Part shown: piece by piece, positions 3,351 to 22,051 of the stretch
Layout: each line of letters starts with the position of its first letter
How positions within the stretch are numbered: the stretch's first letter is position 1
Assembly (NCBI GenBank): GCA_022824205.1
Contig: JAJEAI010000041.1
Span: 856-64,855, forward strand
DNA: 64,000 nucleotides
Source: Candidatus Binatia bacterium
Lineage (GTDB): Bacteria; Desulfobacterota; Binatia; UBA9968; JAJDTQ01
Reading direction: 5' to 3'
The notes under the pieces: generated by a model
Told to the model about the DNA's origin: nothing
The model's database searches: none
What the model saw: the letters and a program-made list of their open reading frames with translations, nothing else
Translations under genes and position numbers: made by a program

Positions 3351-5747
3351 TCACGCGCGGGAAAGGAGCGTATCGATCTCGGCCGCGGCGCGGGACGCGG
3401 TTTCGGTGACCGCCGTCTTCAGCGCGTCGAAGTCCTCATGCCCGCAGGCGCTCGCCACAAGGGACTGGACCTTCGGCCCCGCCGCGGCCGCGTCAAAGCC
3501 CTCCCCGCCCACAAGGTGCGTGATGCCCTGCAAATCGCGCCACAGAGACGCGGCTTGCGCCAGCGGCTCCGCGCCCGCGCCGTGAAGCAGCGCGGCTGCG
3601 GTCGGGGCCGGATGGTCGAGGGCCGCAGCGCCGTTCGTCAACTGCAGGAAGCGCGCGGTCCGCTCCACGTCATCCAGTCCGCCGCGCATGAGGGCGTACG
3701 TGGACACGCCGGGTTCGGCGGCGGCTTGCCGTCGCTCGCGCGGCCGGCCCGTCAGCGACTCGCTCCCATCCCATCCGGCCAGGACTTCGCGCCGTGCTTC
3801 ATCGAAGCGGCGGCCGATGTCGGAGTCGCCGCACTCGAACACGCAGCGCGCCCGGGTGAGCGGGGGGATTCCGCCGGAAGCAGGCCTTCCGCCATGCTCG
3901 GCCAACTCGGCAAGGGGCAGATCCGGAAGGGGATTGGCGTCGGGCGTGATGGGCGAGAACAACAGGCTGTCCCGCGCCAGGTCGGTGAGGGTCTCACGGA
4001 AACCGCGGCACAGGCGTTCATGTTCGCCACCCATCCCGCCGTCATGGACGAACATCATGCCGACGGCAACGCCGGGATGAACCTCCCGGCTGGCGAGATC
4101 GCCCAGGAATATCGCGGCGACCCCGCCCCCGCCCAAGGGTCCGAAGCGCTCGACCACGTCCGCCGCCACGGCGCCGAGCAGGGTCGCGATCGACGCTTCG
4201 GCGAGACTGGACAGCGCGGACTTCGCCTCGGCCGGCGACAGGTTTCCGCGCACCACGTGCATGGCGACCTGAAAGGCCTTGTCGTTGGACCAGTTGCGCA
4301 CGATCTCCGCGCTTTCCCTTGCGTCCGCCGTGGGGATTTCGGCGATCAGGTCCTTCATCTCGGGGACGCCCATTTCGACCGTCCAATAGAGTCGCGCAAG
4401 CCCGCGGCGCGCGATCGCCTCGGATTCGCGATCCGGCCCGAATCCCTTCGGCAAGTCAAGATCGGTGAACTCCCGGTCCTGCAAGCTGTCCAGAAGCTCC
4501 GGATTGCGTTCGATCCATTTGGCGAGGCGCGGGGCGGCGCCGTAGATTTCGACGATGGCCTCGAAGGCTTCCGGCCGCGCCGCGGAGATCGGGCTGTCGT
4601 AGGCGCTCCAGTCATCGATCTCCGGGTAGAAATGCGCGCGCCATTGATCCACCAACGGATCCATCTTCTCGAACCAGCGCCTGGGCCGCAGCACGATGTT
4701 CATCATGTCGGCGTAGGTGCCCGGCAACACCGGCGCTTCATCCGCGCCGCGGACCTGGAGCAGCGGGTAGTGGCGAGCCGCCGCCGCATGATGATCCGCA
4801 TGGCGCTGCATGTTGAAGAACATCCAGTTGCTGTACTTCCAGTCCGCGTTCCAGGAATGGCGCGGCATCACTTTTTCCCAACGGCCGTTGGACTGACGCA
4901 CCCGGCGCAGACCGTAGTGCTGGAAGTAGTTGCTGATCTTCATGGAAAAGACGCAACTCAGGCCGAGGAAGACGAAGACCAGCACCGCCAGGATACCGCT
5001 CATCCACCACACCAGCCCATACCAGAACAATAGAGCGAGCCCGTAGCGCCAGAACTGATTGCTGTAATGCCACCGCGGCAGCCCGCGCCGCGCCAGTCGC
5101 TCGCCGGCGAATTCCCAGGAGTTGGTGACGTTGCTGACGATCTCCCTGGGGAAATAGCGCCAGAAACTCTCACCCTTCGGAGCGGACCCCACGTCGAGCG
5201 GCGTGCCCACCTTGGCGTGGTGGATGTAGACATGCTCCGTGGAGTATTGCGGATACGAGGCCGAGGCCAGCAGGAATTCTCCGAGCCGCCGTTCCCAGGC
5301 GGAGCGCCGGTGGACCAGTTCGTGACCGACCACGAAGACAGCCTGCGCTTCCATGGTCAGGAGGCTCGCCAGGATCACGGCTTCCCAGACCGCGAACTGA
5401 TTCGCGACAAGGATCTGCCACATGCCGAGAATCAGCACCGGCGGCCACAGAAACGCCCAGGTCCAGACCGGCAGATTGTGCCAGACCAGCCGGCGTTCCG
5501 GCGTGTTCTCCGGGTCCATGTTGCGGCCGTCGGGACCGAGCGCCCGATCAAGCGGCCCCACGACGCTCATGAAGAGGAATGGCGGCAACAGCCACCAGCC
5601 GCCATACATCGCGGCGGCAAGAAGCAGAGGGAAAATGCCCAGTGGCAGGTAGTGCGGCAGGGCGTTACGAATCGAGGGCTCGATCCTCCGCGTGACGTCA
5701 GCCTTGTCCGGGCTCAAGCCACCACCTGCGGCTGCATCCTGCGGCAT
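3351..5747 (-). CDS. AlkB-type integral-membrane alkane 1-monooxygenase / fatty-acid-desaturase-family hydroxylase fused to a C-terminal GlnE-like (adenylyltransferase-type) nucleotidyltransferase-like domain, possibly catalytically degenerate
   Basis: 798 aa. The N-terminal ~390 aa has His boxes HELVHRRS, EHVYIHH and NMQRHADHHA, and an AlkB-like C-terminal tail LPGTYADMMNIVLRPRRWFEKMDPLVDQW. The C-terminal ~400 aa contains ERFGPLGGGGVAAIFLGDLASREVHPGVAVGMMFVHDGG, which resembles the GlnE/GlnD NTase motif (G-K-L-G-G-R-E...S-D-x-D-L) but has AVG where the metal-binding D-x-D should be. It is one frame with no internal stop. Confidence 0.6.
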   Translation of the reverse strand: MPQDAAAGGGLSPDKADVTRRIEPSIRNALPHYLPLGIFPLLLAAAMYGGWWLLPPFLFMSVVGPLDRALGPDGRNMDPENTPERRLVWHNLPVWTWAFLWPPVLILGMWQILVANQFAVWEAVILASLLTMEAQAVFVVGHELVHRRSAWERRLGEFLLASASYPQYSTEHVYIHHAKVGTPLDVGSAPKGESFWRYFPREIVSNVTNSWEFAGERLARRGLPRWHYSNQFWRYGLALLFWYGLVWWMSGILAVLVFVFLGLSCVFSMKISNYFQHYGLRRVRQSNGRWEKVMPRHSWNADWKYSNWMFFNMQRHADHHAAAARHYPLLQVRGADEAPVLPGTYADMMNIVLRPRRWFEKMDPLVDQWRAHFYPEIDDWSAYDSPISAARPEAFEAIVEIYGAAPRLAKWIERNPELLDSLQDREFTDLDLPKGFGPDRESEAIARRGLARLYWTVEMGVPEMKDLIAEIPTADARESAEIVRNWSNDKAFQVAMHVVRGNLSPAEAKSALSSLAEASIATLLGAVAADVVERFGPLGGGGVAAIFLGDLASREVHPGVAVGMMFVHDGGMGGEHERLCRGFRETLTDLARDSLLFSPITPDANPLPDLPLAELAEHGGRPASGGIPPLTRARCVFECGDSDIGRRFDEARREVLAGWDGSESLTGRPRERRQAAAEPGVSTYALMRGGLDDVERTARFLQLTNGAAALDHPAPTAAALLHGAGAEPLAQAASLWRDLQGITHLVGGEGFDAAAAGPKVQSLVASACGHEDFDALKTAVTETASRAAAEIDTLLSRA

Positions 5748-5900
5748 AGCGGACCATACCCCCCCGGTAACGGTCCGATTTTATCACCGGGTACCGTAAC
5801 CCACAAACACGTCAAGCCCCCAAGGTGCACGACAAGAAGATGGTGAGAGGGGCAGAGGTGAAGGAGGGCACGCCGGGGTCGGTGTCCCGTGTTCAAGTTC

Positions 5901-6647
5901 TCACGGCATCACCATCCCGCCGTTCACGTGCAGGGTGGCGCCGGTGACGTAGTCGCTCTCGTCGCAGGCGAGAAAGAAGATGCCGTCGGCGATCTCCTCG
6001 GGCATGGCGGCACGGCCCATGGGGAGGCCGCCGGAGAGCTTCGCCCACTCGTCTTCGTCGTACTTGCCGCGCACGCGGTCGGTGCCGGTGAGACCGGGGG
6101 CGATGGTGTTGACGCGGATGCCGTGGGGCGCCAGCTCGCTGGCCAGGGACTTGGAGAAGGCGATGACGGCGGCCTTGGAGGCGGCGTAGTGAGTGCGCTC
6201 GCCGCCGCCGGTGACGCCGAAGTTGGAGGCGGTGTTGACGATGACGCCGTGGCCGGCCTGCTTCATGGGGGCGATGACCGCCTGAGAGCAGAGGAAGGTG
6301 GTCTTGAGGTTCAGGTCCAGGCACTCCTTCCATTGAGCGGGGGTCACGTCCTGGATCGCGCCCTTGTGGAAGGTGCCGCCGGCGAGGTTCACGAGGACGT
6401 CGATGCGGCCGCAGGCAGACAGGATGCGCTCGAAAGCGGCGGTCACCTCCGACTTGTCGGTCAGGTCCGCCTGGATGAAGCGGCCTTCCACCTGCTTCGT
6501 TTCGAGGAGGGACGCGGTGGCCGCGCCGGCTTCGGCGTCCCGGTCGAGGATGACGGGCGCGTAGCCCTCTTCGCTGAAACGGAGCACCGCGGCGCGGCCG
6601 ATGCCCCTGGCGCCTCCGGTGACGACAACCACTTTCGCATCCATCAT
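5901..6647 (-). CDS. SDR-family short-chain dehydrogenase/reductase (FabG-like)
   Basis: VVVTGGARGIGRA glycine-rich NAD(P)-binding motif and catalytic YAASKAAV (YxxxK). 248 aa. Confidence 0.85.
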   Translation of the reverse strand: MMDAKVVVVTGGARGIGRAAVLRFSEEGYAPVILDRDAEAGAATASLLETKQVEGRFIQADLTDKSEVTAAFERILSACGRIDVLVNLAGGTFHKGAIQDVTPAQWKECLDLNLKTTFLCSQAVIAPMKQAGHGVIVNTASNFGVTGGGERTHYAASKAAVIAFSKSLASELAPHGIRVNTIAPGLTGTDRVRGKYDEDEWAKLSGGLPMGRAAMPEEIADGIFFLACDESDYVTGATLHVNGGMVMP

Positions 6648-6747
6648 AAGTCCTTTGTTCCGTGAAAACCCCGGCCGGCAAGGTTACCCGCGCTCATCAG
6701 GGGTTCCCTTGGCCACCGGGCGGTCCTCCAACGCCTCGTTCACGACG

Positions 6748-11710: not shown

Positions 11711-12985
11711 TCAGCGCGTCCAGTTGCAGATGGTGGCGGCCGACAGCGCGTAGATCTGCGACGCGCGCACGATCTCATCGACGTCGATCTGCTCGGACCG
11801 CGTGGTGAAGCGGCCTCCGCCGAGGCCGAACTTGCACGCCGGAATGCCCATCTCGTTGTAGATGTTGGTGTCGGTCCAGATGCTGGAACGAAACGTGTTG
11901 ACCGGCGTGGTCTTCTTGCCGAACAGTTCCTGGTGCGTGTTCTCGATGACATCCACCACCGGCTCGATGCCCTTGGCCTCGTAGCCCATCTTCGACGTGT
12001 ACATCTCGATGTCGTACTCGTAGCCGGTGGCGTCCATGACCGCGCGCAACTGCCGCTGCACCTCCATGGGCCGAAGCTCCGGCGGAATGCGCACGTCCAC
12101 GTAGAGCGAGCAGATGCCCGGGTGGTAGTTGGGCCGGTAAGGGGCGCCTCCCTGGACGGCGCCGAGATTGACCTTGGGGATGATCGGGCCGTTGGCCGAC
12201 TGGTACACGTGCGTGGCCTCGAACTCCTCGGCCCAGGCATCCACCGCCTGCGCCACCCTGGCCATCTTGAGCACCGCGTTGTGCTCTTCGGGCGGCTCCT
12301 GCTGCCGCGTGACCCCCCAGGCGGCGTGCGGATTGCCGAAGGTGTCGATCTTGAACTGGGCCACGCCGGCCTGGGTCCACACGATGCACAGAGCCGAGCG
12401 GTCCGCCACGATGGCGTAGTCGGACTGCACGCCGTAGGTCAGCAGGTGACGCGTGCCGGTGCCTTCGCCGCGGTAGAGGCCGGACTGGTACGGCCCGATG
12501 GGGGTGCGCGAGATCTCGCCCGCCACCGCCGCGAGGATCAGGTCGCCCTTTATGGCGACGCCGCTCTTCTTGAGCGCTTTGCCCGCCACCATGAACGCCG
12601 CCAGACCCGACTTCATGTTGGACGCGGCAAGGCCGAACACCTTGCCGTCACGGATGGCGCCGCGCAACTCGCTCTGTGGCTCGAGCTCGCGGCACAGCAT
12701 GAGGTCGTCCTCCTGCCCGGTGAAGCTCGTGTCCATATGGCCGTTGATCATCAGCGACACGCCGCCCCCGGTGCCCTGGAGCACGCCCACGGCGTTCACG
12801 CGGTTGGGGTCGATCTCCTGGCGGACCGGCTTGAGACCGTTGGCCCGGTACCAGTCGAGGATGAACTCACCGATCTCCTTCTCCGAGCCGGTGGGGCTCA
12901 GGATGTCCACGAGGTCGCGTGTGAGCTCGGCCAACTCCTGGCCGTCGATATGCTGGAGGATGCGTTCCTTGGTATCGTTGTCCAT
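11711..12985 (-). CDS. M20-family metallopeptidase / deacylase (ArgE/DapE/CPG2-like)
   Basis: MDNDTKERILQHIDGQELAELTRDLVDILSPTGSEKEI...GHMDT...; start re-derived to ATG at 12985. The track ORF 11711..13255 is over-extended upstream. Confidence 0.8.
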   Translation of the reverse strand: MDNDTKERILQHIDGQELAELTRDLVDILSPTGSEKEIGEFILDWYRANGLKPVRQEIDPNRVNAVGVLQGTGGGVSLMINGHMDTSFTGQEDDLMLCRELEPQSELRGAIRDGKVFGLAASNMKSGLAAFMVAGKALKKSGVAIKGDLILAAVAGEISRTPIGPYQSGLYRGEGTGTRHLLTYGVQSDYAIVADRSALCIVWTQAGVAQFKIDTFGNPHAAWGVTRQQEPPEEHNAVLKMARVAQAVDAWAEEFEATHVYQSANGPIIPKVNLGAVQGGAPYRPNYHPGICSLYVDVRIPPELRPMEVQRQLRAVMDATGYEYDIEMYTSKMGYEAKGIEPVVDVIENTHQELFGKKTTPVNTFRSSIWTDTNIYNEMGIPACKFGLGGGRFTTRSEQIDVDEIVRASQIYALSAATICNWTR

Positions 12986-13050
12986 GGTGTCGAGGTGGGG
13001 TCGGGGATGTTCGATGCGTGTGATCGATGCGTTGGATGCTTCGATACGGG

Positions 13051-13227
13051 TCAGCTCTTGCGCTGCTTGTCGATCTTCATGATGGGCATCACCCCGGTGA
13101 CGTCGACCTTGTAGAGGTCCTGGAGCAGCCGGTGGGTCTCCTCCGCCTGCCTGGCGATGGATTCGATCTCGTCCTCGGTGAGGTTGAAACCGTATTCCTT
13201 GTCGATCTCGCGAATCCGTTCCTTCAC
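13051..13227 (-). CDS. Unannotated 58-aa ORF with a GatC-like (Glu-tRNA(Gln) amidotransferase C-subunit-like) motif
   Basis: A GTG start 6 nt after a perfect GGAGGA gives MKERIREIDKEYGFNLTEDEIESIARQAEETHRLLQDLYKVDVTGVMPIMKIDKQRKS. The L-T-E-D/E-E...L...V-D-V-T-G-V-x-P pattern resembles GatC. It is missed by the track because it is under 60 aa. Confidence 0.45.
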   Translation of the reverse strand: MKERIREIDKEYGFNLTEDEIESIARQAEETHRLLQDLYKVDVTGVMPIMKIDKQRKS

Positions 13228-13393
13228 GGCCGTTCCTCCGGTTGGCGGACAACATCAGCGAAATTGCGATGGAATCGCACTCCTCGGGCTCGTAACACGC
13301 CCACCTGAGTGTGTCAACGCGGCCCCTGTCGGACCCACGTCCCCGAGCCCGCGTTGCACTCGCGGCCGTCCGCCAACGCCGGAATACGTGGGG

Positions 13394-14491
13394 TTACAGA
13401 CCCAGCAACTCCTCGGCGTTCCCGCCCAGGATCTTGACCTTCTGGGCGTCGGTGATGTCGCTTCGTTCCTCGATGCCCGAGACCGTGTGCGGGTACTCCG
13501 AATCGAAGTGCGGATAGTCCGTGGCCATGAAGATGCGGTCCTCTCCGAGTTCCTTGATGGGCGTCGCCAGGTCGCGCTCGTCCGCCTCGCAGGTCACGTA
13601 GCAGTTGCGCTTGATGTACTCCGACGGCGCCATGCTCAAGTGGCCGGTGAGCTGGGAGAAGTCCTTGGCCCACTCGTAGTCGTCGTCCATCCGGTGCATC
13701 CAGAAGAGGATCCACTCCGCGCTGCACTCGAAGAACACCACCTTGAGCCGCGGGAACTTCTCGAACACGCCGCCCAGCACCAGCGCGATGAGCGCGGCCG
13801 TGCAGTTCATCACCCGCCCCAGGACGTGGGTCTTGTAGAAGTTGTCGAACCGGTCCGTGAGGTCGCCGTTGCTGTTGGGATGGCAGAAGAGCGGCACGCC
13901 CAAGTCCTGGACCGTCTCGTAGTAGGGATAGAAGATCGGATCGTCCACGTTCCTCGAACCCACGTACGGCACCAGATGGGTGGCCTTGAAGCCCAGCTCC
14001 CCGACACAGCGCGTCACTTCGTCCGGCATCGCTTCCGGGCAGCCGGCCGGGGCCATGGCGCAAGGCAGGAACGTCTCCTCGTAGCCCTTGACCAGGTTCG
14101 CCACCCAGTCGTTGAAGGCCCGCGCCACCACCGCGCCCAGGCGGCCCTGGTTCTGCGTGGCGATGCTGATGCCGGTGGGGAAGATGATCTCCTTGTCGAT
14201 GCGCTCGGCCCGGATATCCTCTGCCCGCCGCGCCATGTCGTAGCCGCCCACCTGCCGCTCGGCGATCTCGCCCGCGCGCCAGTTCACCTTGGGGTCGTAG
14301 ATGTAGGGGTGCTTGTGGGTCGCGAGCCCCTGGGGATTGAGCGGCTCCAGGGAATGGATGAAGCGGGTCCCGTGACTTCGGCCCGCGTCGTTGGCCTTCC
14401 TGGGAGTGAACTGGGCGAACGGTTCGTCCAGCTTGTACACCTCGTCCATGAAATAGCCTTCGCGCAAATGCGAATCGAGATCGATGATCAT
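13394..14491 (-). CDS. Amidohydrolase-2 family metal-dependent hydrolase/decarboxylase (PF04909-like)
   Basis: MIIDLDSHLREGYF...HKHPYIYDP...ATDYPHFD, the metal-dependent TIM-barrel amidohydrolase pattern. GGAGGG RBS. Confidence 0.75.
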   Translation of the reverse strand: MIIDLDSHLREGYFMDEVYKLDEPFAQFTPRKANDAGRSHGTRFIHSLEPLNPQGLATHKHPYIYDPKVNWRAGEIAERQVGGYDMARRAEDIRAERIDKEIIFPTGISIATQNQGRLGAVVARAFNDWVANLVKGYEETFLPCAMAPAGCPEAMPDEVTRCVGELGFKATHLVPYVGSRNVDDPIFYPYYETVQDLGVPLFCHPNSNGDLTDRFDNFYKTHVLGRVMNCTAALIALVLGGVFEKFPRLKVVFFECSAEWILFWMHRMDDDYEWAKDFSQLTGHLSMAPSEYIKRNCYVTCEADERDLATPIKELGEDRIFMATDYPHFDSEYPHTVSGIEERSDITDAQKVKILGGNAEELLGL

Positions 14492-14541
14492 GGGCTGTCC
14501 CTCCGTTTGAGCAATATCAGAGAAGGGAGACTAACACCCGG

Positions 14542-16401
14542 TCAGGGACCCGGCAATCTCGCCTTCTTCTTTTCGAGCGTGTCCAACTCTGCCATCAATC
14601 GCCGCTTGGCCTTGTGTCGCACTCGCATCGCCGCGATGTAGCGGCGGAAATCGTCGCTTCGGCCCAGGCCTTGCATGAGCTTCTCCATCTTCGAGAGATA
14701 GGGCATCGCCTCACGATAGGCACTGGGCTGGACTCGGGCGATCAGACTCTCGGCCTTGCCTCGCCACACGTCGATGCTGACGTCGGGATGCGTCTTCGCC
14801 ACGGCCTGGGCGATGCGGTCGGCATGCTGGTCCTTGTGAGGAGCCTCCCGAAACCACCGCAAGGCATCCTCCGTCCGTTTCTCGTGAAGCGCAATCGTTA
14901 TCAGGCTATCGTGGTCAGGCGTGTCGCGCCGGAATCGTCGTGCGGGGAATGGAAGTCCTGTATCCGGCAACGGCCAACCGGCCGCGGACGAAGGGGCGGA
15001 GCCGGTCTCCAGGTAGCGCAACAACCCGGACCTCACCTGCGGCCAGCAGCCTTTCTTGCGGGCTGTCTGTTCGACCCGGCGATAGTTGTCCACCGTGCTC
15101 CGTTCGAGAAATCCCTCCACTCGCAACGCCGCTGCCAGCAACCAGTCCCGCCGTCGCCGGGCGATGTCAAGCAACTGCTCCACCAACTTCCAGGCGATGC
15201 CGGGTGAATGCTCCAGGGTCAGCCTGAAGCCCTGGTAGATCCAGTGCACGGCCTGGTCGTAGTCTTTGCTCGCCGACAGGGCATCAACCAGATCGACATA
15301 GTTGTCGCAATAGGGCAGCTCGGCAATCATCAGCTCGATCGCTCGATGCTCCTCGCCGGCCTCGCCCAACGCCCGTTGCGTGTACTTCAATAGCTGCTCC
15401 CGACGGTACCGTTCCGACGACCAGCGGCCACGGCCATCGGGCTTGGGGCTGGCCGCCAGCCGGTTGCCGAACGCTTCGGCGACCTCGCGCCAGTCGGCGG
15501 GTTTCATCTGGACCTCGTTCACCGGCGGCGTCAGCCCGTCCAGCAAGCAGTACGAGTCGTTCAGGAGCTTGTCCCAATACCAGATCATGCGCTCCGCGGC
15601 CGGGCGTTTGGTCTGCCTCATCGCCTCCAGCACCACGGCCAGGCAATCGCTGATCTCGCCGGCGGTTTCCCCTTCGTCGTCCGATTCCTCGACCTGGGTG
15701 GTGCCGAGTTTGAACAATTCCTCTCCCAGCTTCAGCACCGCCTCGTGATGCCCGTCGTTCAGCAGCTTCTTGAGTTGCTCTCGAATCGGAGAGTAGGCCG
15801 GCGTATGGCCTTCGTGGCGCCAATAATCCTGCCAGCCTCTCTCGCTGGCCGTCTTGCGAATCTGCCGGCGCAGCCGCGCCACGGCCCAATCCGGAGCCTC
15901 ATCGGTGAGCGGCCCCGCCAGGGGCAACGTATCGAAAAGCGACGGATCGAACGCGAACCGATCCATGGCCCATTCAACGAGCTGCGCCTTTGTCAGAGCG
16001 TCAAGCGCGGCGCGCGCCTCATCGGGATCGACAGCTCGTTCCGTGCCCAAATCTCCCGCCAAGCCATATGTCGAGAGCCGGTCGCTCAACTCGTCACCGT
16101 CGATCCGTGGAACGGATGTCCCCGCCGCGACGCAATCGAGATAAGCCAGAATGACGGCAACGGCGTGCTTGCAAGGCCCGTCGTAGGGACAACTGCACTC
16201 GTGATCCGGCTCGCCGTGGGTCATCCAGACTCGCGTGGCGTAGTTTTCGCTTCCGACAACCTCGGCAACCAGGTGCCCTTCCTCGGTCACCGCGAGATCA
16301 TGCACACGTCGCCGATAGCCCTTGCCGCGCTTGAAAATGGTGGCTCCAGCCCATTGCTCCAGGTCTTCCGTACCGAGTGATGTATAAGGCGTCGTCGGCA
16401 T
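14542..16401 (-). CDS. SWIM zinc-finger domain protein (large, 619 aa)
   Basis: CSCPYDGPCKHAVAVILAY is a canonical SWIM CxCx(n)CxH motif. Start re-derived to MPTTPYTSLGTEDLEQW (ATG 16401). Confidence 0.7.
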   Translation of the reverse strand: MPTTPYTSLGTEDLEQWAGATIFKRGKGYRRRVHDLAVTEEGHLVAEVVGSENYATRVWMTHGEPDHECSCPYDGPCKHAVAVILAYLDCVAAGTSVPRIDGDELSDRLSTYGLAGDLGTERAVDPDEARAALDALTKAQLVEWAMDRFAFDPSLFDTLPLAGPLTDEAPDWAVARLRRQIRKTASERGWQDYWRHEGHTPAYSPIREQLKKLLNDGHHEAVLKLGEELFKLGTTQVEESDDEGETAGEISDCLAVVLEAMRQTKRPAAERMIWYWDKLLNDSYCLLDGLTPPVNEVQMKPADWREVAEAFGNRLAASPKPDGRGRWSSERYRREQLLKYTQRALGEAGEEHRAIELMIAELPYCDNYVDLVDALSASKDYDQAVHWIYQGFRLTLEHSPGIAWKLVEQLLDIARRRRDWLLAAALRVEGFLERSTVDNYRRVEQTARKKGCWPQVRSGLLRYLETGSAPSSAAGWPLPDTGLPFPARRFRRDTPDHDSLITIALHEKRTEDALRWFREAPHKDQHADRIAQAVAKTHPDVSIDVWRGKAESLIARVQPSAYREAMPYLSKMEKLMQGLGRSDDFRRYIAAMRVRHKAKRRLMAELDTLEKKKARLPGP

Positions 16402-16589
16402 GGTAGTCACTTCTCCCCCTGTACCGCATATCGATACCCCGCCAACGTCCATCAAGCCAAGACCCCGCCGTTTCGCCCGTTGGCGCAACCGGCGCTCTCC
16501 CCTCTCCTGTCGGAGGAGTACGCCGACGAGGAAGGTAGCCCTCAACACATTTGCCATTCCCCAACCCGTGGCATAAGGTCTGGCCGTTC

Positions 16590-16715
16590 AATGCGCTCCA
16601 TGATCACTTGGATCAAACGCAAGCCTACGTCCGGAACGCCTTCACGAGCTTACCAATCCTGGATCTCCTCCAGGTCGGCCAAGGCGGAGTTGGTCAGCCG
16701 GATCTCGGCAGGCAC
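16590..16715 (-). pseudogene. Decayed ParE/RelE-like toxin remnant downstream of the Phd/YefM antitoxin
   Basis: Immediately after the antitoxin stop, the minus strand encodes V-PAEIRLTNSALADLEEIQDW and then a TAA stop after ~20 codons. This is a typical toxin N-terminus with no intact downstream frame. Confidence 0.4.
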
Positions 16716-16717
16716 GA

Positions 16718-16981
16718 CTATTCGAGACCGAGTCGGTGCTTGGCTTCGGCCAGCGACACTTCGCGTCCCTCCTCCAGATCCGACAGCCCCTCAATCACCG
16801 CCCGCATGAAGGCGCGCTCATCGTCGGCCGCTTCGAATTCCTCGACGGATTGGACGACCGCCACGCCACGACCCCTACTCGTCACCAAAACCGGACGCCG
16901 CGTTTCCGTTGCGTGTTTCACAACGCGACCGGGGTTCGTCTTGAGGTCGGTCAGCGGAACGATGTCCTCAGAAAATTTCAT
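16718..16981 (-). CDS. Phd/YefM-family type II antitoxin (orphan)
   Basis: MKFSEDIVPLTDLKTNPGRVVKHATETRRPVLVTSRGRGVAVVQSVEEFE matches the Phd/YefM fold. Confidence 0.8.
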   Translation of the reverse strand: MKFSEDIVPLTDLKTNPGRVVKHATETRRPVLVTSRGRGVAVVQSVEEFEAADDERAFMRAVIEGLSDLEEGREVSLAEAKHRLGLE

Positions 16982-17011
16982 TTGATTTTTCTCCTATAGG
17001 ACCTGTTTAGT

Positions 17012-17218
17012 ATGCTACTACTCCTCAAGCTCATGTTCGGCGCTATGATCCGGGCTGCCGAGCGCTGGAGGGCCATCAAGGTCTCTGATCTCGAGCGCCG
17101 CCAAACGCGCGCCGTCAGAGAGGACCTCGATCAGGAATACCAGGCCCCTGACGGCCTCAACCGAAACGCCTCGGCCAATGCTTCCCCCTCCCAATTATCC
17201 AACACTTCTCGGACTTGA
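17012..17218 (+). mobile_element. Possible transposase C-terminal remnant (mutator/IS256-like tail)
   Basis: MLLLLKLMFGAMIRAAERWRAIKV has the L-x-K-L...A...W pattern of IS256-type transposase C-termini. It is short, has no DDE core, and its upstream context is AT-rich. Weak call. Confidence 0.25.
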
Positions 17219-17673
17219 CCCGCGACAAGGACCCCGAACTGCGACAAACTGTCCTGACACTGGTCGCCTTTCACGACGTTGAATCGAAGGTCGACCTGAT
17301 CGAGCGCCGCATCGCGGACGGCGACGACTACCTCGACCTTTTGACCGACAGCTTCACGCGTGAGTTGCTTGGCGAAGACGGCTACTTGACCGCCCTGCTG
17401 GAAATCTGCGCCCGAAAAGTCCTGTACGAGAACGCCTACTGGAACATGCTGGCCGATCTCCGCAACCGCGGTCATCTGGACCAGAACGGCTACAATCAAC
17501 TGCTCGACAAGCTCCACGCCCGGAAGCTCATCGACGACCTCAACTATCGTCGCTGGAGTAGACGAGACGCTCCAGCACTACAGGACGACCCCCTACCACA
17601 CGTGGCTGAATCAGCACCGGACTACTATCCGAAGAGCCGTCTGAAAAACGGACAAAACGACCTGTTTGACTGA
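17215..17673 (+). CDS. Hypothetical protein (152 aa)
   Basis: TTG start overlapping the previous stop. No recognisable motifs (MTRDKDPELRQTVLTLVAFHDVESKVDLIERRIADGDDYLDLL...). Confidence 0.4.
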   Translation: MTRDKDPELRQTVLTLVAFHDVESKVDLIERRIADGDDYLDLLTDSFTRELLGEDGYLTALLEICARKVLYENAYWNMLADLRNRGHLDQNGYNQLLDKLHARKLIDDLNYRRWSRRDAPALQDDPLPHVAESAPDYYPKSRLKNGQNDLFD

Positions 17674-17824
17674 TACCAGTATCTCAGCCGCTCGCCCGAA
17701 CGAGCGCGTCCCATCTCAATCACAGCCAAACGAGCCAGATGATCTTCGAATACGCAACCTCGGCGGTGTCCATGTGGCCGGATTGTAAGCTATACTTGTA
17801 TATCCGTTGAGAGGGGGAGCCGTT

Positions 17825-18049
17825 ATGCTCGCGATCAGACTGCCCGCCGAGGTGGAAGCCCGCCTTGATGCGCTGGCGAAAGCCACGGGTCGGACCAAGA
17901 CCTTTTACGCCCGCGAGGCCATCCTGAAGCACTTGGAAGACCTCGAAGACTTGTACTTGGCCGAACAGCGCCTGATCGAGAGCCGCGCCGGACGATCCGA
18001 AAGCCTACCGCTTGAAGAAGTAATGAAACGCTATGGCATGGAAGGTTGA
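17825..18049 (+). CDS. Ribbon-helix-helix (CopG/RelB/ParD-like) type II antitoxin
   Basis: MLAIRLPAEVEARLDALAKATGRTKTFYAREAILKHLEDLEDLYLAEQRL. ATG at 17825 with AGGGGGAG RBS. Confidence 0.75.
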   Translation: MLAIRLPAEVEARLDALAKATGRTKTFYAREAILKHLEDLEDLYLAEQRLIESRAGRSESLPLEEVMKRYGMEG

Positions 18050-18094
18050 GCTTGACCGTGGCGCTGTGCGCGACCTTGACAAGGGGGATCAACC

Positions 18095-18358
18095 ATGGCT
18101 GCCAATCAACTTGTCCAGGCCCGCATCGACGGGGCCGTGAAAGAGGAAGCGGCCGCCGTGTTGGCTGCGATGGGGCTTACGGTGTCCGATGCAGTGCGGC
18201 TTCTGCTGACCAAGATTGCCCAGGAAAAGGCATTGCCTTTCGAGCCACTGATTCCAAACCCCATCACTATCGAGGCGATGAAGGAGGCCCGCAAGCGCGG
18301 CCTGCCCCGGTTCGACAGCGTACAGACCCTCGTGGACGATCTGAAAACGGAAGATTGA
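18095..18358 (+). CDS. RelB/DinJ-family type II antitoxin
   Basis: VQARIDGAVKEEAAAVLAAMGLTVSDAVRLLLTKIAQEKALPFEPLIPNPITIEAMKEARKRG is a characteristic DinJ/RelB sequence. Confidence 0.8.
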   Translation: MAANQLVQARIDGAVKEEAAAVLAAMGLTVSDAVRLLLTKIAQEKALPFEPLIPNPITIEAMKEARKRGLPRFDSVQTLVDDLKTED

Positions 18359-18383
18359 GCGTACTGTCCAAGGGGACCAACCC

Positions 18384-18617
18384 ATGCCCGTGGTCAACGT
18401 CGATCAAGCCAAGACCCAACTCTCCCGCCTGTTGGCGCAGGTCGAGGCGGGCGAGGAAGTGGTTATCACGCGCCAGGGTGAACCCGTCGCGCGACTTGTC
18501 CGCTACAAGCGGCCGGGCAAGCGGCAATCCGGCACCCCGGAGGGGCGAATCGTCGTGGACGACAGCATCCTCGATCCTCTCCCGGAGGATGAGTTGAAGT
18601 TGTGGGAAGGTGGTTAG
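18384..18617 (+). CDS. Phd/YefM-type (VapB-like) antitoxin
   Basis: MPVVNVDQAKTQLSRLLAQVEAGEEVVITRQGEPVARLV...IVVDDSILDPLPEDELKLWEG matches prevent-host-death-family antitoxins usually paired with VapC. No PIN gene follows. Confidence 0.8.
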   Translation: MPVVNVDQAKTQLSRLLAQVEAGEEVVITRQGEPVARLVRYKRPGKRQSGTPEGRIVVDDSILDPLPEDELKLWEGG

Positions 18618-18668
18618 CGTGTCTCACAAACGACACTTATCCAGCAGGGGAGAGAAGGGAGAAGCAGC

Positions 18669-18986
18669 ATGACCCCGCTCGAAATCGTATTCGCCGCGGC
18701 GTCCCTGGCACTTCAGACCGTCGCCGTTGGGGCCATCTTCTACGGCATCGGCCAAATGCGCCGGGCCGGAGACCAACGCGAGAAGCGCGAGGATGCCCGG
18801 CACTCCGAAACCATGGAAGCGCTACGCCAGCAGGGCGAAGTGCTCCAGGCACTTGTCCGGGGTATTGAACAGCAAGGCGAAGCTCTCCGGCAGCAAGCCG
18901 AAGCACTCAAACAGCAAGGCGAAGCGCTCCGGCAACAGGGCGAAGCGCTCAAGATCGTAATCGAGAGAACCGCCGCCCCGGCCTAG
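18669..18986 (+). CDS. Small membrane-anchored coiled-coil protein with tandem heptad repeats
   Basis: N-terminal hydrophobic helix (IVFAAASLALQTVAVGAIFYGIG), then QQGEVLQALVRGIEQQGEALRQQAEALKQQGEALRQQGEALK, encoded by four or five 21-bp tandem DNA repeats (cagcaaggcgaagcKctccgg). Purine-rich RBS. Confidence 0.6.
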   Translation: MTPLEIVFAAASLALQTVAVGAIFYGIGQMRRAGDQREKREDARHSETMEALRQQGEVLQALVRGIEQQGEALRQQAEALKQQGEALRQQGEALKIVIERTAAPA

Positions 18987-19144
18987 CTAGGAGTCCTCAC
19001 GGAAAGCGATGCCCGGCATCAGTGCCCTTCGCCCTCGCTCCTTCTCCTTGACACCCCGACACCCGCAACCCACAATGAAGGATGCTCCGGCGCCACGCCC
19101 TCCCGGCTCTTTTCGGACCGGGCCGAGGGCGCCGGCATGGATCC

Positions 19145-19291
19145 ATGATCGAGCTTCTTGTGACCTATCCGGGTCTCGTGTTTATCGGACTGTCGATGTT
19201 GGTGGTTCTCGACACGGTGAGCGGGAACTTGCCTCCGGCGGCGCTGGTGCCGTTCGCCTTGGGCACGGTGGTGGCGGTGATCCTTTTGTGA
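19145..19291 (+). CDS. Possible 48-aa two-helix membrane peptide
   Basis: MIELLVTYPGLVFIGLSMLVVLDTVSGNLPPAALVPFALGTVVAVILL is hydrophobic. Weak call. Confidence 0.3.
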   Translation: MIELLVTYPGLVFIGLSMLVVLDTVSGNLPPAALVPFALGTVVAVILL

Positions 19292-19328
19292 GGCGGTGCC
19301 GGCCGGTGCCGGGAGTGGAGCCGAGAGA

Positions 19329-20153
19329 ATGACAGGACCTTTTGCGCGGGCGTGGGCGGCATCCGGAGTGCTCTTCCTGACGGCGTTGTTCGTGGGCGGG
19401 GTGGCGATGGCCCAGATCCAGTCCACAAACCCGGACGAGCCGGCGTCACCGCTGTTGCGGCAGGGGACGATCATGGAAGAGGATCTGACCGGCTCAGCGC
19501 CGGAACCGGCGCCGTCCGTTGGGCAGACCGTGCCCGAGACACCCGCCGTGACGGAACCGCTGGCCCGGCCCGAGGGGCAACCAAACGTCCCGAGGCCGGG
19601 ACCGGAAAAGGCGGAACCGGAGGCGTCGCGCCCGGCAACGGCGGTTCTCGCGCCACAACCAGCGCCGGCCGCCCCCGCGTCCGATGTCCGATCCGACCAC
19701 GGCACCGGGGACTCCTACCCGTTGCCGGACCTGACCGCGGCGACGGGCACGGCCTTACCGCAGCGCGAGGCGTCGATGAAGCTGTTGCAGCAAGGTCGGA
19801 CACTGCTTCGAGCGGAGAGCCACGACGCCGCGCTGGCGCGCTTCGAGCAGGCCATTCGGGTGGACTCGACCAATCCCTACAGCCATTACTTCGTTGCCCG
19901 CGCGCACTACTTCCTGGGCAACTATCGCGAGTCCCTGAACTTTCTCGAGGTCGCGGAATCGGGCCTGGCGGTAGACGACAGGTGGCTCGCGGAGGTGTAC
20001 GTCCTGCGCGCTCGCAACGCCACCGCTCTCGGCTTTCACGCGCGCGCCGACCTCGACTACGTGCGCGCGTTGAGACTCCAGCCGTTCCACGGCTACTCGC
20101 TAGCGCGCCTCACCTCCGTCGAGCCGCTGGCGCGCGCGGGCCGCAATCCCTGA
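19329..20153 (+). CDS. Secreted Pro-rich protein with C-terminal TPR-like repeats
   Basis: Signal-peptide-like MTGPFARAWAASGVLFLTALFVGGVAMAQ, a Pro/Ala-rich linker, and a C-terminus ALARFEQAIRVDSTNPYSHYFVARAHYFLGNYRESL (TPR-like). Confidence 0.55.
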   Translation: MTGPFARAWAASGVLFLTALFVGGVAMAQIQSTNPDEPASPLLRQGTIMEEDLTGSAPEPAPSVGQTVPETPAVTEPLARPEGQPNVPRPGPEKAEPEASRPATAVLAPQPAPAAPASDVRSDHGTGDSYPLPDLTAATGTALPQREASMKLLQQGRTLLRAESHDAALARFEQAIRVDSTNPYSHYFVARAHYFLGNYRESLNFLEVAESGLAVDDRWLAEVYVLRARNATALGFHARADLDYVRALRLQPFHGYSLARLTSVEPLARAGRNP

Positions 20154-20231
20154 CGACGCGCATTGCGACGCGACGCGCGCGCGGAACCTCGCGCCATGGC
20201 ATGAGGAATCGCCCGGGGCTCCGCCGTTGGA

Positions 20232-21191
20232 TCAGGGCGCGACGGCGGGCGGATCCGGCAGTCCGTAGTTCAACGTCAGGCGAACGGTCAGGGAGTTGTC
20301 GGGGACACTGCGGGGTATGGGACCGAAGGGCGCGGTTTCCCGAACGTTGCGCAACGCCTCCACGTCCAGCACGATGAAGCCGGACGACCTGGACAGCTTG
20401 ATGCCTTCGACCTCGCCGTTCTCGCGCACCGCGAAGACCACGTCCACAGCCCCCTCCTGGCGCGTCCGCTTGGCATATTCGGGATAACGCGCGTTGCCGC
20501 CGATCTTCCGCCGCAGCGACTCGACGTAGGCCCACTCTCTCGGGTTGTCCGGCTCTTCCCATGGCTCGGTGTGGGTCACCTGGACGCCCTCGACCGGTGA
20601 GGGTTCGGGCGTTTCCTCGCCACGTTGCCGCCGCCGGATACGCTCCACGGCCTGGTCGATGCGGGCCAGCCGATCCGCCTCTTCGGTCCGCGGGGGTTCC
20701 ACCGGCGCCACCGCACTCACCTCGCCGGGGTCGCCCGCGGGCGACGAGGCGGCCGGCGCCGGCCCTTCGGCCACGGGCGCGGCCGGCGTCCGCGGTTTCC
20801 TGAAGAGCCGCGACAGCATGTCGATCCGGTCTCGCGCCAGTTTGACGCCCGACCGGTGACCGAGCTCCGTGTAGACGCCCAGGACGCGGTGGAAGTCCTT
20901 CAAAGCGTCCAGCGGCTCACCCTTGAGCAGGCGCACCTCCGCCATGTTGTGGAGCGCCAGGGCCAAGGGCAATCGGCTCCCCGCCTGCTCGGCAAGCGAG
21001 ACCGCCTGCCCGAGTTGGTTCAAGGCTTCCAGGTAGCGTTCGGAGCGCGCGTTGCCGCGCGCCTCGACGATCTTCTCATACGCCTGTTGCGCCAGTTCGG
21101 ACGGCGCGCCCGTCTGCGCGTGCGCCATGGCCGCGCCGACCAGGAGCCACGCCAACACCAGCGCCCGGCGGCACACTCTCAGTCGGTTCAA
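20232..21191 (-). CDS. TonB-family protein (signal peptide, TPR-like region, Pro-rich spacer, TonB C-terminal domain)
   Basis: C-terminal YPEYAKRTRQEGAVDVVFAVRENGEVEGIKLSRSSGFIVLDVEALRNV is a TonB_C domain. Start uncertain: TTG at 21191 (MNRLRVCRRALVLAWLLVGAAMAHA) or GTG at 21176. The track ORF extends spuriously through proC. Confidence 0.65.
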   Translation of the reverse strand: MNRLRVCRRALVLAWLLVGAAMAHAQTGAPSELAQQAYEKIVEARGNARSERYLEALNQLGQAVSLAEQAGSRLPLALALHNMAEVRLLKGEPLDALKDFHRVLGVYTELGHRSGVKLARDRIDMLSRLFRKPRTPAAPVAEGPAPAASSPAGDPGEVSAVAPVEPPRTEEADRLARIDQAVERIRRRQRGEETPEPSPVEGVQVTHTEPWEEPDNPREWAYVESLRRKIGGNARYPEYAKRTRQEGAVDVVFAVRENGEVEGIKLSRSSGFIVLDVEALRNVRETAPFGPIPRSVPDNSLTVRLTLNYGLPDPPAVAP

Positions 21192-21232
21192 CAGATGGCG
21201 GCCCTTCTCGTCCTCGAAGCGGCAGGTCCGCA

Positions 21233-22051
21233 CTAGTGCTCGCCCCTCCCCAGGGCTTCCGAACGCTCCGTCGCCTGGATCACCGCCTCCATGATGGTGG
21301 CGCGAAAAGCCCCCTGCTCCAGGGCGAAGAGACCGGCGGCGGTGGTCCCGGCGGGCGACGTGACGGCGTCGCGCAACTCGGCGAGGTGCCCCTTGGACTC
21401 CCGTGCCATGACCGCGGAGCCGTAGACGGTTTGCAGCGCCAGATCGAGAGCGACGTCGCGGCCGAGCCCCATCTGCACGCCGCCCGCGGTGAGGGCCTCG
21501 ATGAACAGGAAGACGTACGCCGGGCCGCTGCCGCTCAAGGCGGTCACGGCGTCGAGATGATGCTCCTCCACGGTGACCGCGACGCCCACGCTCGAAAGGA
21601 TCCGTCCAACCCTGTCGAGGTCTTCGTCCTTCGCCCATTGGCCTCCGGAGTAGGCCGAGGCCGCCTCTCCCACGAGGCAGGGCGTGTTGGGCATGACCCG
21701 AACCACGCGCGTGCCCTCGGGCAGATGCCCCTCGATGCGCGCCAGCGGCACCCCGGCCGCGATGGACACCACCAGCTTGTCTTCCAGCAAGGTGCCGGCG
21801 AGTTCCCGCAGCACCGCGTCGATGACCTGGGGCTTGACCGCGAGCACCACGATGTCCGAGGACTTCGCCAACTCGACGTTGTCCTTCACGAACCGGACAC
21901 CGGTCTCGTCGACCAGCGCCTTCCCCAACGCCTCGATGGGATCGCTCGCAACCAACTGGCTCCGATCCACCAGACCGGCGCGCAAAATTCCCTTGATGAT
22001 GGCGCTGCCCATCTTGCCGGCGCCGATGAAACCGATCCTGTCCTGGAGCAT
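21233..22051 (-). CDS. proC: Pyrroline-5-carboxylate reductase
   Basis: IGFIGAGKMGSAI NAD(P)-binding fold and full-length ProC similarity. AAGGAGG RBS. Confidence 0.9.
   Translation of the reverse strand: MLQDRIGFIGAGKMGSAIIKGILRAGLVDRSQLVASDPIEALGKALVDETGVRFVKDNVELAKSSDIVVLAVKPQVIDAVLRELAGTLLEDKLVVSIAAGVPLARIEGHLPEGTRVVRVMPNTPCLVGEAASAYSGGQWAKDEDLDRVGRILSSVGVAVTVEEHHLDAVTALSGSGPAYVFLFIEALTAGGVQMGLGRDVALDLALQTVYGSAVMARESKGHLAELRDAVTSPAGTTAAGLFALEQGAFRATIMEAVIQATERSEALGRGEH

Follow-up and report, generated by a model that had tools for sequence, protein, structure and literature searches.

A dead toxin gene beside a surviving antitoxin reading frame, together the leftover of a type II toxin-antitoxin pair of the Phd-ParE type, was found in a stretch of 64,000 nucleotides from a Candidatus Binatia bacterium (assembly GCA_022824205.1, contig JAJEAI010000041.1, positions 856 to 64,855), which is called the window in the following. 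The antitoxin gene is located at positions 16718-16981. The toxin gene next to it is dead three times over, by a nonsense codon, by four missense changes and by a 3.66-kb deletion. The locus is very probably a Phd/YefM-ParE operon midway through the usual two-step decay, inside a variable islet of toxin-antitoxin and defence genes. In functional modules of this kind the ParE toxin poisons DNA gyrase, and the Phd/YefM antitoxin binds and neutralises its own toxin and represses its own promoter. An earlier reading of the same DNA, made from its letters and here called the original prediction, had proposed that the toxin was lost before the antitoxin, and in this core the prediction holds, since an intact antitoxin stands beside a dead toxin of the ParE type.

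For the antitoxin, residues 5-76 match PF02604 with 59.5 bits (E=2.7e-16; cutoff 29.8 bits), and a match to TIGR01552 was obtained with 48.9 bits (E=3e-13; cutoff 20.8 bits). Both domain matches lie above the curated cutoffs and place the open reading frame (ORF) in the Phd/YefM family. Its position directly upstream of the cognate toxin is also that of the family, with the ParE remnant beginning right after the antitoxin stop codon. The protein is identical in 87 of 87 amino acids to the antitoxins of intact pairs from related contigs (L002 and L004-L010, see below), and the sole base difference from these loci, at position 16922, is synonymous. The domain matches and this identity bear out that the antitoxin gene is intact, as had been claimed.

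For the toxin, a GTG codon at 16713-16715, directly past the antitoxin stop, opens the sequence VPAEIRLTNSALADLEEIQDW, which is followed by TAA at 16650-16652, codon 22 of this frame. Up to here the original prediction, a toxin N-terminus ending in TAA after about 20 codons, was confirmed. It had also been stated that no continuation is recoverable in any frame, and this part was refuted. In the all-frame translation, the same frame past the TAA reads AREGVPDVGLRLIQVIMERIER and onwards, in full AREGVPDVGLRLIQVIMERIERPDLMPRVGEWQMC, until a TGA is reached at 16542-16544, and it is true ParE sequence up to codon 44 (16584). Because the continuation keeps the same frame, the lesion is a nonsense mutation, TAT to TAA at position 16650, and not a frameshift; a frameshifted continuation was rejected on the three-frame translation. 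When the stop is read as tyrosine, the resulting product of 57 amino acids matches positions 1-47 of the 89 positions of PF05016 (ParE_toxin) with E=5e-7 and 30.6 bits (cutoff 23), by which the remnant is assigned to the ParE family. The tblastn comparison that had been suggested was made with the intact ParE proteins of relatives against the whole window and resulted in one significant match, at 16715-16560 with E=8e-21, which is far beyond chance.

In comparison to the intact loci, six differences were identified in the 133-nt ParE portion (44 codons), five non-synonymous and one synonymous. In addition to the nonsense mutation, these are K16E (position 16670), C24R (16646), F35I (16613), E37V (16606) and a synonymous change at 16596. 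Thus, instead of a stub of 20 codons with nothing after it, the locus contains a toxin gene in which codon 22 has become a stop, four residues are changed by missense mutations and 3.66 kb past codon 44 are deleted. The complete, uninterrupted ParE reading frame that is present in the relatives is absent from the window, where a stop ends the frame at codon 22 and the deletion has taken codons 45-104; according to the PF05016 profile, these codons represent the C-terminal half of the ParE domain. A C-terminal truncation by itself is reported to abolish the toxicity of ParE (PMC11925232). A rescue of the toxin by programmed read-through or recoding was rejected, codons 45-104 being physically absent. 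For annotation purposes, the region 16542-16715 is best labelled a parE pseudogene.

The intact state of the pair was identified in close relatives, where the original prediction had proposed to look for it. An exact-sequence look-up of the 87-amino-acid antitoxin returned 13 contigs. In L002 (GCA_964519455.1, labelled 'uncultured Syntrophobacterales') and in seven Logan contigs (L004-L010), that is in 8 of 8 contigs, the identical antitoxin is located next to an uninterrupted ParE of 104 amino acids, which matches positions 1-88 of the 89 positions of PF05016 with E=4e-19.

The window is a metagenome scaffold, and toxin-antitoxin genes and islands, being rich in repeats, are easily misassembled; the lesions might be artefacts of assembly or sequencing, with an intact parE in the real genome. 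This explanation is extremely unlikely and was rejected, since assemblies that were produced separately do not differ and several lesions are present at once. An ENA scaffold (L001; ERZ23491076, KELL22-1 scaffold_315) is 100% identical to window positions 12000-22000 (10,001 bases), and the separately produced Logan assembly L003 (SRR16351689) is 100% identical over 5,052 bp covering the TAA and all lesions, including the deletion junction. The neighbouring antitoxin array was also found in SRR16351688. The stop codon, the four missense changes and the deletion are independent lesions that occur together, the junctions lie outside repeats, and other genomes show different lesions in the same gene.

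The homology between the window and the intact loci extends from 17015 to 16583 (433 nt, 97.9% identical) and ends on both sides in a junction (Table 1). On the toxin side, the junction sequence is …AACGGC/C(A)GACC…, with the slash at the breakpoint, and 3,664 bp are missing relative to L002, namely ParE codons 45-104, an ORF of 87 amino acids and the gene for an SNF2 helicase of 1078 amino acids. The 37 nt past codon 44 (16585-16549) match L002 11841-11877, just upstream of the helicase start. The 87-amino-acid ORF is located on the opposite strand, where it overlaps the 3' end of parE upstream of the helicase gene (L004 3362-3625 (-); L002 8291-8551); for the ORF at L004 3362-3625, no Pfam or PADLOC match was obtained, and it is gone in the deletion of the window.

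On the other side of the antitoxin, a transposase-like fragment had been noted nearby in the original prediction, and this is weakly borne out: the fragment shows 56% identity (tblastn E=1e-15) to a degenerate 'transposase' on a Mesorhizobium plasmid, which itself matches positions 314-377 of the 379 positions of PF00872 (Transposase_mut) with E=1e-3 and 18.4 bits, below the cutoff of 21 bits. A direct Pfam match of the window fragment was not obtained. An insertion of the transposase as the direct cause of the toxin loss was rejected, because the toxin-side junction is a plain microhomology deletion; the fragment is located on the antitoxin's other side and is truncated at both ends. A search for structured RNAs of Rfam in 16000-19300 gave no match up to E=1.

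The upstream junction removed the promoter. In the intact loci, the native promoter TTGACC-17-TATTAT (L004 2788-2816) matches the sigma-70 consensus in 10 of 12 positions. It ends 3 nt before the homology with the window starts, and both the -35 and the -10 element are absent from the window. The antitoxin gene has thus kept its ribosome-binding site and leader but is without its core promoter. Window positions 16350-18700 gave no sigma-70-like site on either strand, in a scan for the sigma-70 consensus only, from which the promoter rules of this phylum may differ. Because of this result no replacement promoter could be proposed, and a promoter of its own, as is present in a functional type II operon, is absent among the consensus sites scanned. 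A terminator scan of the islet returned nothing. From the nearest co-directional gene upstream, the antitoxin is separated by five genes on the opposite strand. Since its own core promoter was deleted without a sigma-70-like replacement, current expression of the antitoxin is doubtful. The 'antitoxin retention' of the original prediction is thus correct for the coding sequence, which was conserved as the toxin remnant drifted, but not for the core promoter.

This conservation can be described in numbers. The ParE remnant of the window differs from L004/L002 at 6 of its 133 bases, and the antitoxin at 1 of its 264 (Fisher p=0.0066). With the Nei-Gojobori method, the non-synonymous (dN) and synonymous (dS) distances were 0.042 and 0.033 for the remnant, a neutral ratio of ~1.3, and 0 and 0.015 for the antitoxin. 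For the flanking amidohydrolase and M20 peptidase genes, dS values of 0.077 and 0.166 and dN values of 0.004-0.008 were obtained. Had the antitoxin evolved at the rate of the remnant, it would be expected to show ~8 non-synonymous changes, and 0 were observed. The comparison supports a purifying selection that would have acted on the antitoxin during much of the period when the toxin already drifted.

The loss of the toxin is not restricted to the window. A scan of species-representative genomes identified 59 related loci, the closest of which belong to Candidatus Binatia metagenome-assembled genomes (MAGs), and in several of these MAGs the pair adjoins the same gene for a SWIM zinc-finger protein as in the window. 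At this orthologous locus, an intact pair is present in L002, L016 and L017. In L015, ParE contains a frameshift near codon 75, and the SWIM gene is lost too. ParE codons 7-104 are deleted in L018, with the antitoxin directly before SWIM, and codons 1 to ~50 in L020; in L076, codons 1-22 are fused to ~90-104. In L070, the antitoxin is shortened to 37 amino acids and no ParE was found nearby, which is a later stage of decay. The antitoxin ORF survives in all but one of these genomes. For the most part the lesions are not nested in one another, which means at least four or five independent losses of the toxin. The pattern that characterises a toxin-first erosion, a defective toxin and an intact antitoxin with intact pairs at the orthologous locus of relatives, is present at the locus. 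For the whole family, 100 intact pairs, 13 loci with a defective ParE and 5 without ParE were counted among 118 scorable loci (~15% orphan) in the genome and metagenome scans, a tally of antitoxin-anchored loci that includes a few duplicates between the collections, which cannot see the reverse state since the survey was anchored on the antitoxin. In a Chromatiaceae MAG, ppb02, three Phd-ParE paralogues were identified (L038, L042, L057), with all toxins defective and all three antitoxins intact; here, one toxin has a nonsense mutation, one has lost an internal part in frame, and one is truncated.

In the proposed history, inactivation of the toxin would have come first, because a loss of the antitoxin or of the promoter with an active toxin would free the stable toxin and be lethal. 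As the opposite order of loss is lethal, surviving genomes contain dead toxins beside intact antitoxins. For a time, the antitoxin would have been kept by purifying selection as the toxin remnant drifted. As the alignments show, a microhomology-mediated deletion of 3.66 kb took ParE codons 45-104 together with the DrmD-like SNF2 helicase gene, and the event at the second junction took the core promoter and most of a gene for a type IIG restriction-methyltransferase. With the promoter gone, the antitoxin would most likely be a relic, expressed weakly or not at all, with the second step, its own loss, still to come.

This is an ordinary and well-documented route of decay, and the locus adds a further case of it from a phylum that has been little studied. 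For Photorhabdus, many more toxin-only pseudogenes (N=185) than antitoxin-only ones (N=8) were reported, and the decay was proposed to take two steps, the toxin going first (Belot et al. 2026, PMC13617665). The ccdO157 system decays within E. coli (PMC2654758), and abundant orphan antitoxins were found in Klebsiella, where the median is nine per strain (PMC7192599). As in the ccdO157 and Photorhabdus cases, the toxin is truncated and point-mutated and the antitoxin ORF persists, the genomic spot is one of high turnover, and independent pseudogenisations recur across the clade. In contrast to these cases, the host is an uncultured Binatia-like lineage, the pair has kept its place beside the same SWIM gene over a deep divergence (dS above 1), and all four modules of a single islet are toxin-less. 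Compared to Phd/YefM-ParE modules in general, the organisation is the same, with the antitoxin first and the toxin start directly after the antitoxin stop, with small proteins of 87 and 104 amino acids, with a sigma-70 promoter upstream in the relatives and with the corresponding Pfam and NCBIfam family matches. The difference is that the window contains only ParE codons 1-44 with a stop and has its promoter deleted; toxicity, the target of the toxin and neutralisation are putative. The locus thus provides an example of toxin-antitoxin erosion resolved to the base pair, by point mutation and microhomology deletion with a lingering antitoxin ORF, and the orthologous loci show a recurrent loss of the toxin, by at least five different lesions, at one place across an uncultured phylum, in a surrounding defence island that is itself being dismantled.

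Several points weigh against this history. The absence of any amino acid change, where ~8 were expected, argues that the antitoxin was, and may still be, useful and fits poorly to a mere relic. In the islet, 4 of 4 antitoxin ORFs are intact and 4 of 4 toxins are gone, a pattern that may be due to selection and not to survivorship. Only the sigma-70 consensus was covered by the promoter scan, and the rules of this phylum may be others. The substitution counts are small, with 7 differences in total, and the locus is a mosaic in which the DNA identity is 88% for SWIM and 97.5% for the neighbouring amidohydrolase gene; recombination could therefore distort the comparison of rates. Finally, no intermediate allele by which the nonsense mutation and the deletion could be ordered, either with the stop and without the deletion or the reverse, was found in the metagenome scan, which gave no relative closer than 85%; by exact-protein look-ups, intact and fully decayed states only were identified.

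Table 1. Features of the islet and its surroundings (positions in the window)
Feature	Position	Strand	Details
Intact Phd/YefM antitoxin gene	16718-16981	-	87 amino acids, stop codon included; AGGAG ribosome-binding site kept upstream
ParE pseudogene, codons 1-44	16584-16715	-	GTG start; TAA at codon 22; K16E, C24R, F35I, E37V
Toxin-side deletion junction	16582-16585	-	3-4 nt microhomology GGC(C); blastn block boundaries, three-way junction alignment
Non-ParE sequence in ParE frame past junction	16542-16583	-	ends at TGA 16542-16544
Upstream rearrangement junction	17015/17016		homology to intact loci ends 34 nt before antitoxin ATG
5'-truncated C-terminal transposase fragment, probably IS256/Mutator	17016-17218	+	similarity to Mesorhizobium plasmid fragment
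Second toxin-less antitoxin, RelB-like ribbon-helix-helix (RHH)	17825-18049	+	74 amino acids; NF048017 E=1.7e-32; PF05509, PF19807
RelE/ParE-family toxin stub, ~18 codons, MAWKVELDRGAVRDLDKG	18033-18086	+	runs directly into ribosome-binding site of next antitoxin
Third toxin-less antitoxin, RelB/DinJ	18095-18358	+	TIGR02384 E=2.5e-22; PF04221 E=8e-19
YafQ remnant, ~8 codons (…IERTV…), start codon lost	18345-18370	+	homology block to L002 ends at 18370
Fourth toxin-less antitoxin, short Phd-type (Phd2)	18384-18617	+	PF02604 E=8e-12
SWIM zinc-finger protein gene	14542-16398	-	PF04434 E=3.8e-7; PADLOC defence candidate PDC-S62 E=9e-20
3'-end remnant of type IIG restriction-methyltransferase (DrmMI-like) gene	17220-17522	+	blastn 88-97% to L002 2256-2825; tblastn
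Older scar, fragment of gene for 518-amino-acid ORF of L018 (…LSEEYADEE…)	16495-16532	+	blastn
Older scar, N-terminal fragment of second Phd-type antitoxin (…NVHQAKT…)	16443-16487	+	direct repeat D3

The label 'orphan', which had been given to the antitoxin, is correct in that the cognate toxin is dead. However, the gene is not isolated, being one of four toxin-less antitoxins of an eroded islet of 2.6 kb, with four antitoxin genes and zero toxins within 1.9 kb. The region 16399-18617 is an eroded toxin-antitoxin and defence islet in which only the antitoxin genes are intact, and this arrangement was found in one population only. For the RHH antitoxin, the start giving 74 amino acids is that of the database gene call, and an alternative form of 80 amino acids starts at 17807; an exact-sequence look-up of the longer form gave nothing, the gene being on record with the shorter one. 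The toxin stub behind it matches the first 18-20 residues of a RelE from an Aeromonas plasmid, which starts with MAWKVELDPAAERELGKIDQQ, and the partner antitoxin of this RelE is 84% identical to the RHH antitoxin of the window. The RelE stub is also present in L020, where the RHH antitoxin is frameshifted. The counterpart of the RelB/DinJ gene in L002 is 88% identical and is followed by an intact YafQ (PF15738 E=1.7e-29). The Phd2 gene has counterparts in L018 and L020 that are 76-78% identical and are followed by an intact PIN/VapC (PF01850 E=6e-18). By tblastn, no second ParE, YafQ or VapC homologue was found in the 64-kb window. Weak toxin matches at 48.8-49.2 kb (E of 0.17 or worse), inside ordinary long ORFs, were rejected as chance.

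The arrangement suggests another role for the antitoxin, and perhaps for all four, which might be kept by selection as anti-addiction or immunity factors against toxins encoded on plasmids, phages and other mobile elements. The concept of anti-addiction is established (PMC2654758; PMC7192599). The unchanged antitoxin protein beside a neutrally evolving toxin remnant would be consistent with it, as would the four intact antitoxin ORFs with no toxins left, the head-to-tail order with short spacers of the trio at 17825-18617, and the G-rich sequences resembling ribosome-binding sites just before the start codons of RelB/DinJ and Phd2. Cognate toxins circulate, since the Phd-ParE family occurs widely in Binatia, Chromatiales and other groups, among which it is evidently mobile. 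However, the Phd gene has had its core promoter deleted, the scanned region contains no sigma-70-like site, the arrangement is confined to a single population, no second toxin of the ParE, YafQ or VapC type occurs in the window, and the RHH antitoxin is frameshifted in L020. In addition, the orphan antitoxins of L018 and L020, compared with each other, have a dN/dS of 0.48 (10 non-synonymous and 7 synonymous changes) versus ~0.05 clade-wide (Fisher p=0.053), and another copy, in L070, is truncated. To judge from these values, orphan copies in relatives look relaxed, which counts against a lasting function. On balance, an anti-addiction role is unlikely. In common with known orphan antitoxins and anti-addiction modules, the window contains a chromosomal antitoxin without a working toxin, the sequence of which would in principle be competent to neutralise a circulating cognate. 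In contrast, ccdEch of Erwinia chrysanthemi, the classic example of anti-addiction, is a full chromosomal toxin-antitoxin system and not a lone antitoxin (Saavedra De Bast et al. 2008, as reviewed in PMC2654758).

A more far-reaching form of this idea, in which the four antitoxins represent a selected 'antitoxin-only' cassette conferring broad immunity against the addiction and abortive-infection toxins of mobile elements, is speculative and quite improbable. The four belong to different families, namely Phd-ParE, RHH-RelE, RelB/DinJ-YafQ and Phd-VapC, and the unchanged Phd beside a neutrally drifting toxin might be the trace of selection. If the array were expressed and selected, it would be a natural system on which to test anti-addiction in non-model bacteria.

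A different function might be derived from the neighbouring SWIM gene. The original prediction had placed a SWIM-finger gene next to the antitoxin, and this gene was identified at 14542-16398. It is the conserved downstream neighbour by which the orthologous locus is anchored, and it adjoins Phd, with or without ParE, in L016, L017, L018, L020, L070 and L076. It was considered that Phd has been co-opted as a transcription factor, with its N-terminal DNA-binding domain regulating the SWIM gene, which lies downstream in the same direction, or other genes. Even between deeply diverged relatives (antitoxin dS above 1, dN/dS ~0.05), Phd, SWIM and, where it is present, ParE share one direction and are closely linked, the antitoxin stands directly before SWIM in L018, and in an alignment the palindrome CCTATAGG is kept in the 5' leader. 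Nevertheless, L070 has SWIM but no full antitoxin and L015 the antitoxin but no SWIM, the antitoxin's own promoter is lost in the window, and the case is built on gene adjacency. A co-opted regulator is thus very unlikely, and both this role and an assembly artefact are less likely than an anti-addiction function.

In L002, the pair is located between two large defence genes. One of them codes for a protein of 1838 amino acids (PADLOC REase_MTase_IIG, E=0; also DrmMI-like) and the other for the SNF2 helicase, which is DrmD-like (PADLOC E=1e-195); a neighbouring protein of 322 amino acids is an Mrr-type nuclease (PADLOC). From these flanking genes it follows that the pair was formerly situated inside a defence island. 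In the lineage of the window, both large genes were deleted together with the 3' half of the toxin and the operon promoter. DISARM class 1 systems consist of the core proteins DrmA, DrmB and DrmC together with DrmD and DrmMI. In L002, a contig fragment, only the DrmD-like and the DrmMI-like/type IIG proteins were found and none of DrmA, DrmB and DrmC was seen, which falls short of a complete DISARM class 1 system. The likeness to DISARM-like and type IIG islands thus consists in the position of the L002 pair between DrmMI-like and DrmD-like genes, with the Mrr-type nuclease and RelB/DinJ-YafQ nearby. The window differs in that both large genes are missing and a methyltransferase remnant of ~300 bp is left. 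A database gene call at 17215-17673 (+), an ORF of 152 amino acids, is largely the C-terminal remnant of the 1838-amino-acid restriction-methyltransferase that is intact in L002.

Two older scars were identified between the parE pseudogene and the SWIM gene. By blastn, the sequence 16495-16532 matches L018 5338-5377, within an ORF at 5121-6677, and L015 6190-6227. The sequence 16443-16487 is 82% identical to 18395-18439 and matches the Phd2 genes of L018 and L020 by blastn; the fragment is also present in L002. Neither the ORFs of 58 and 109 amino acids in 16400-16809 nor the stretch by which the SWIM ORF extends upstream to 16557 represents a gene.

At the other end of the islet, an ORF of 105 amino acids (18669-18986, +) occupies the position of VapC in the relatives. 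It gave no Pfam or PADLOC match and no tblastn match in any related locus. An N-terminal segment of the ORF is hydrophobic, and at 18868-18952 it contains a 21-nt repeat, encoding the seven amino acids QQGEALR/K, in about four copies.

For the SWIM protein, the identity between the window and L002 (SWIM at 12223-14073) is 82%, in comparison to 99% for the adjacent amidohydrolase and 100% for the antitoxin; because of this difference, the SWIM gene is either fast-evolving or recombinant. The highly conserved Amidohydro_2 gene is located upstream of Phd-SWIM in L018, L070 and L076 and downstream of SWIM in the window and in L002, and a rearrangement around the islet is therefore implied.

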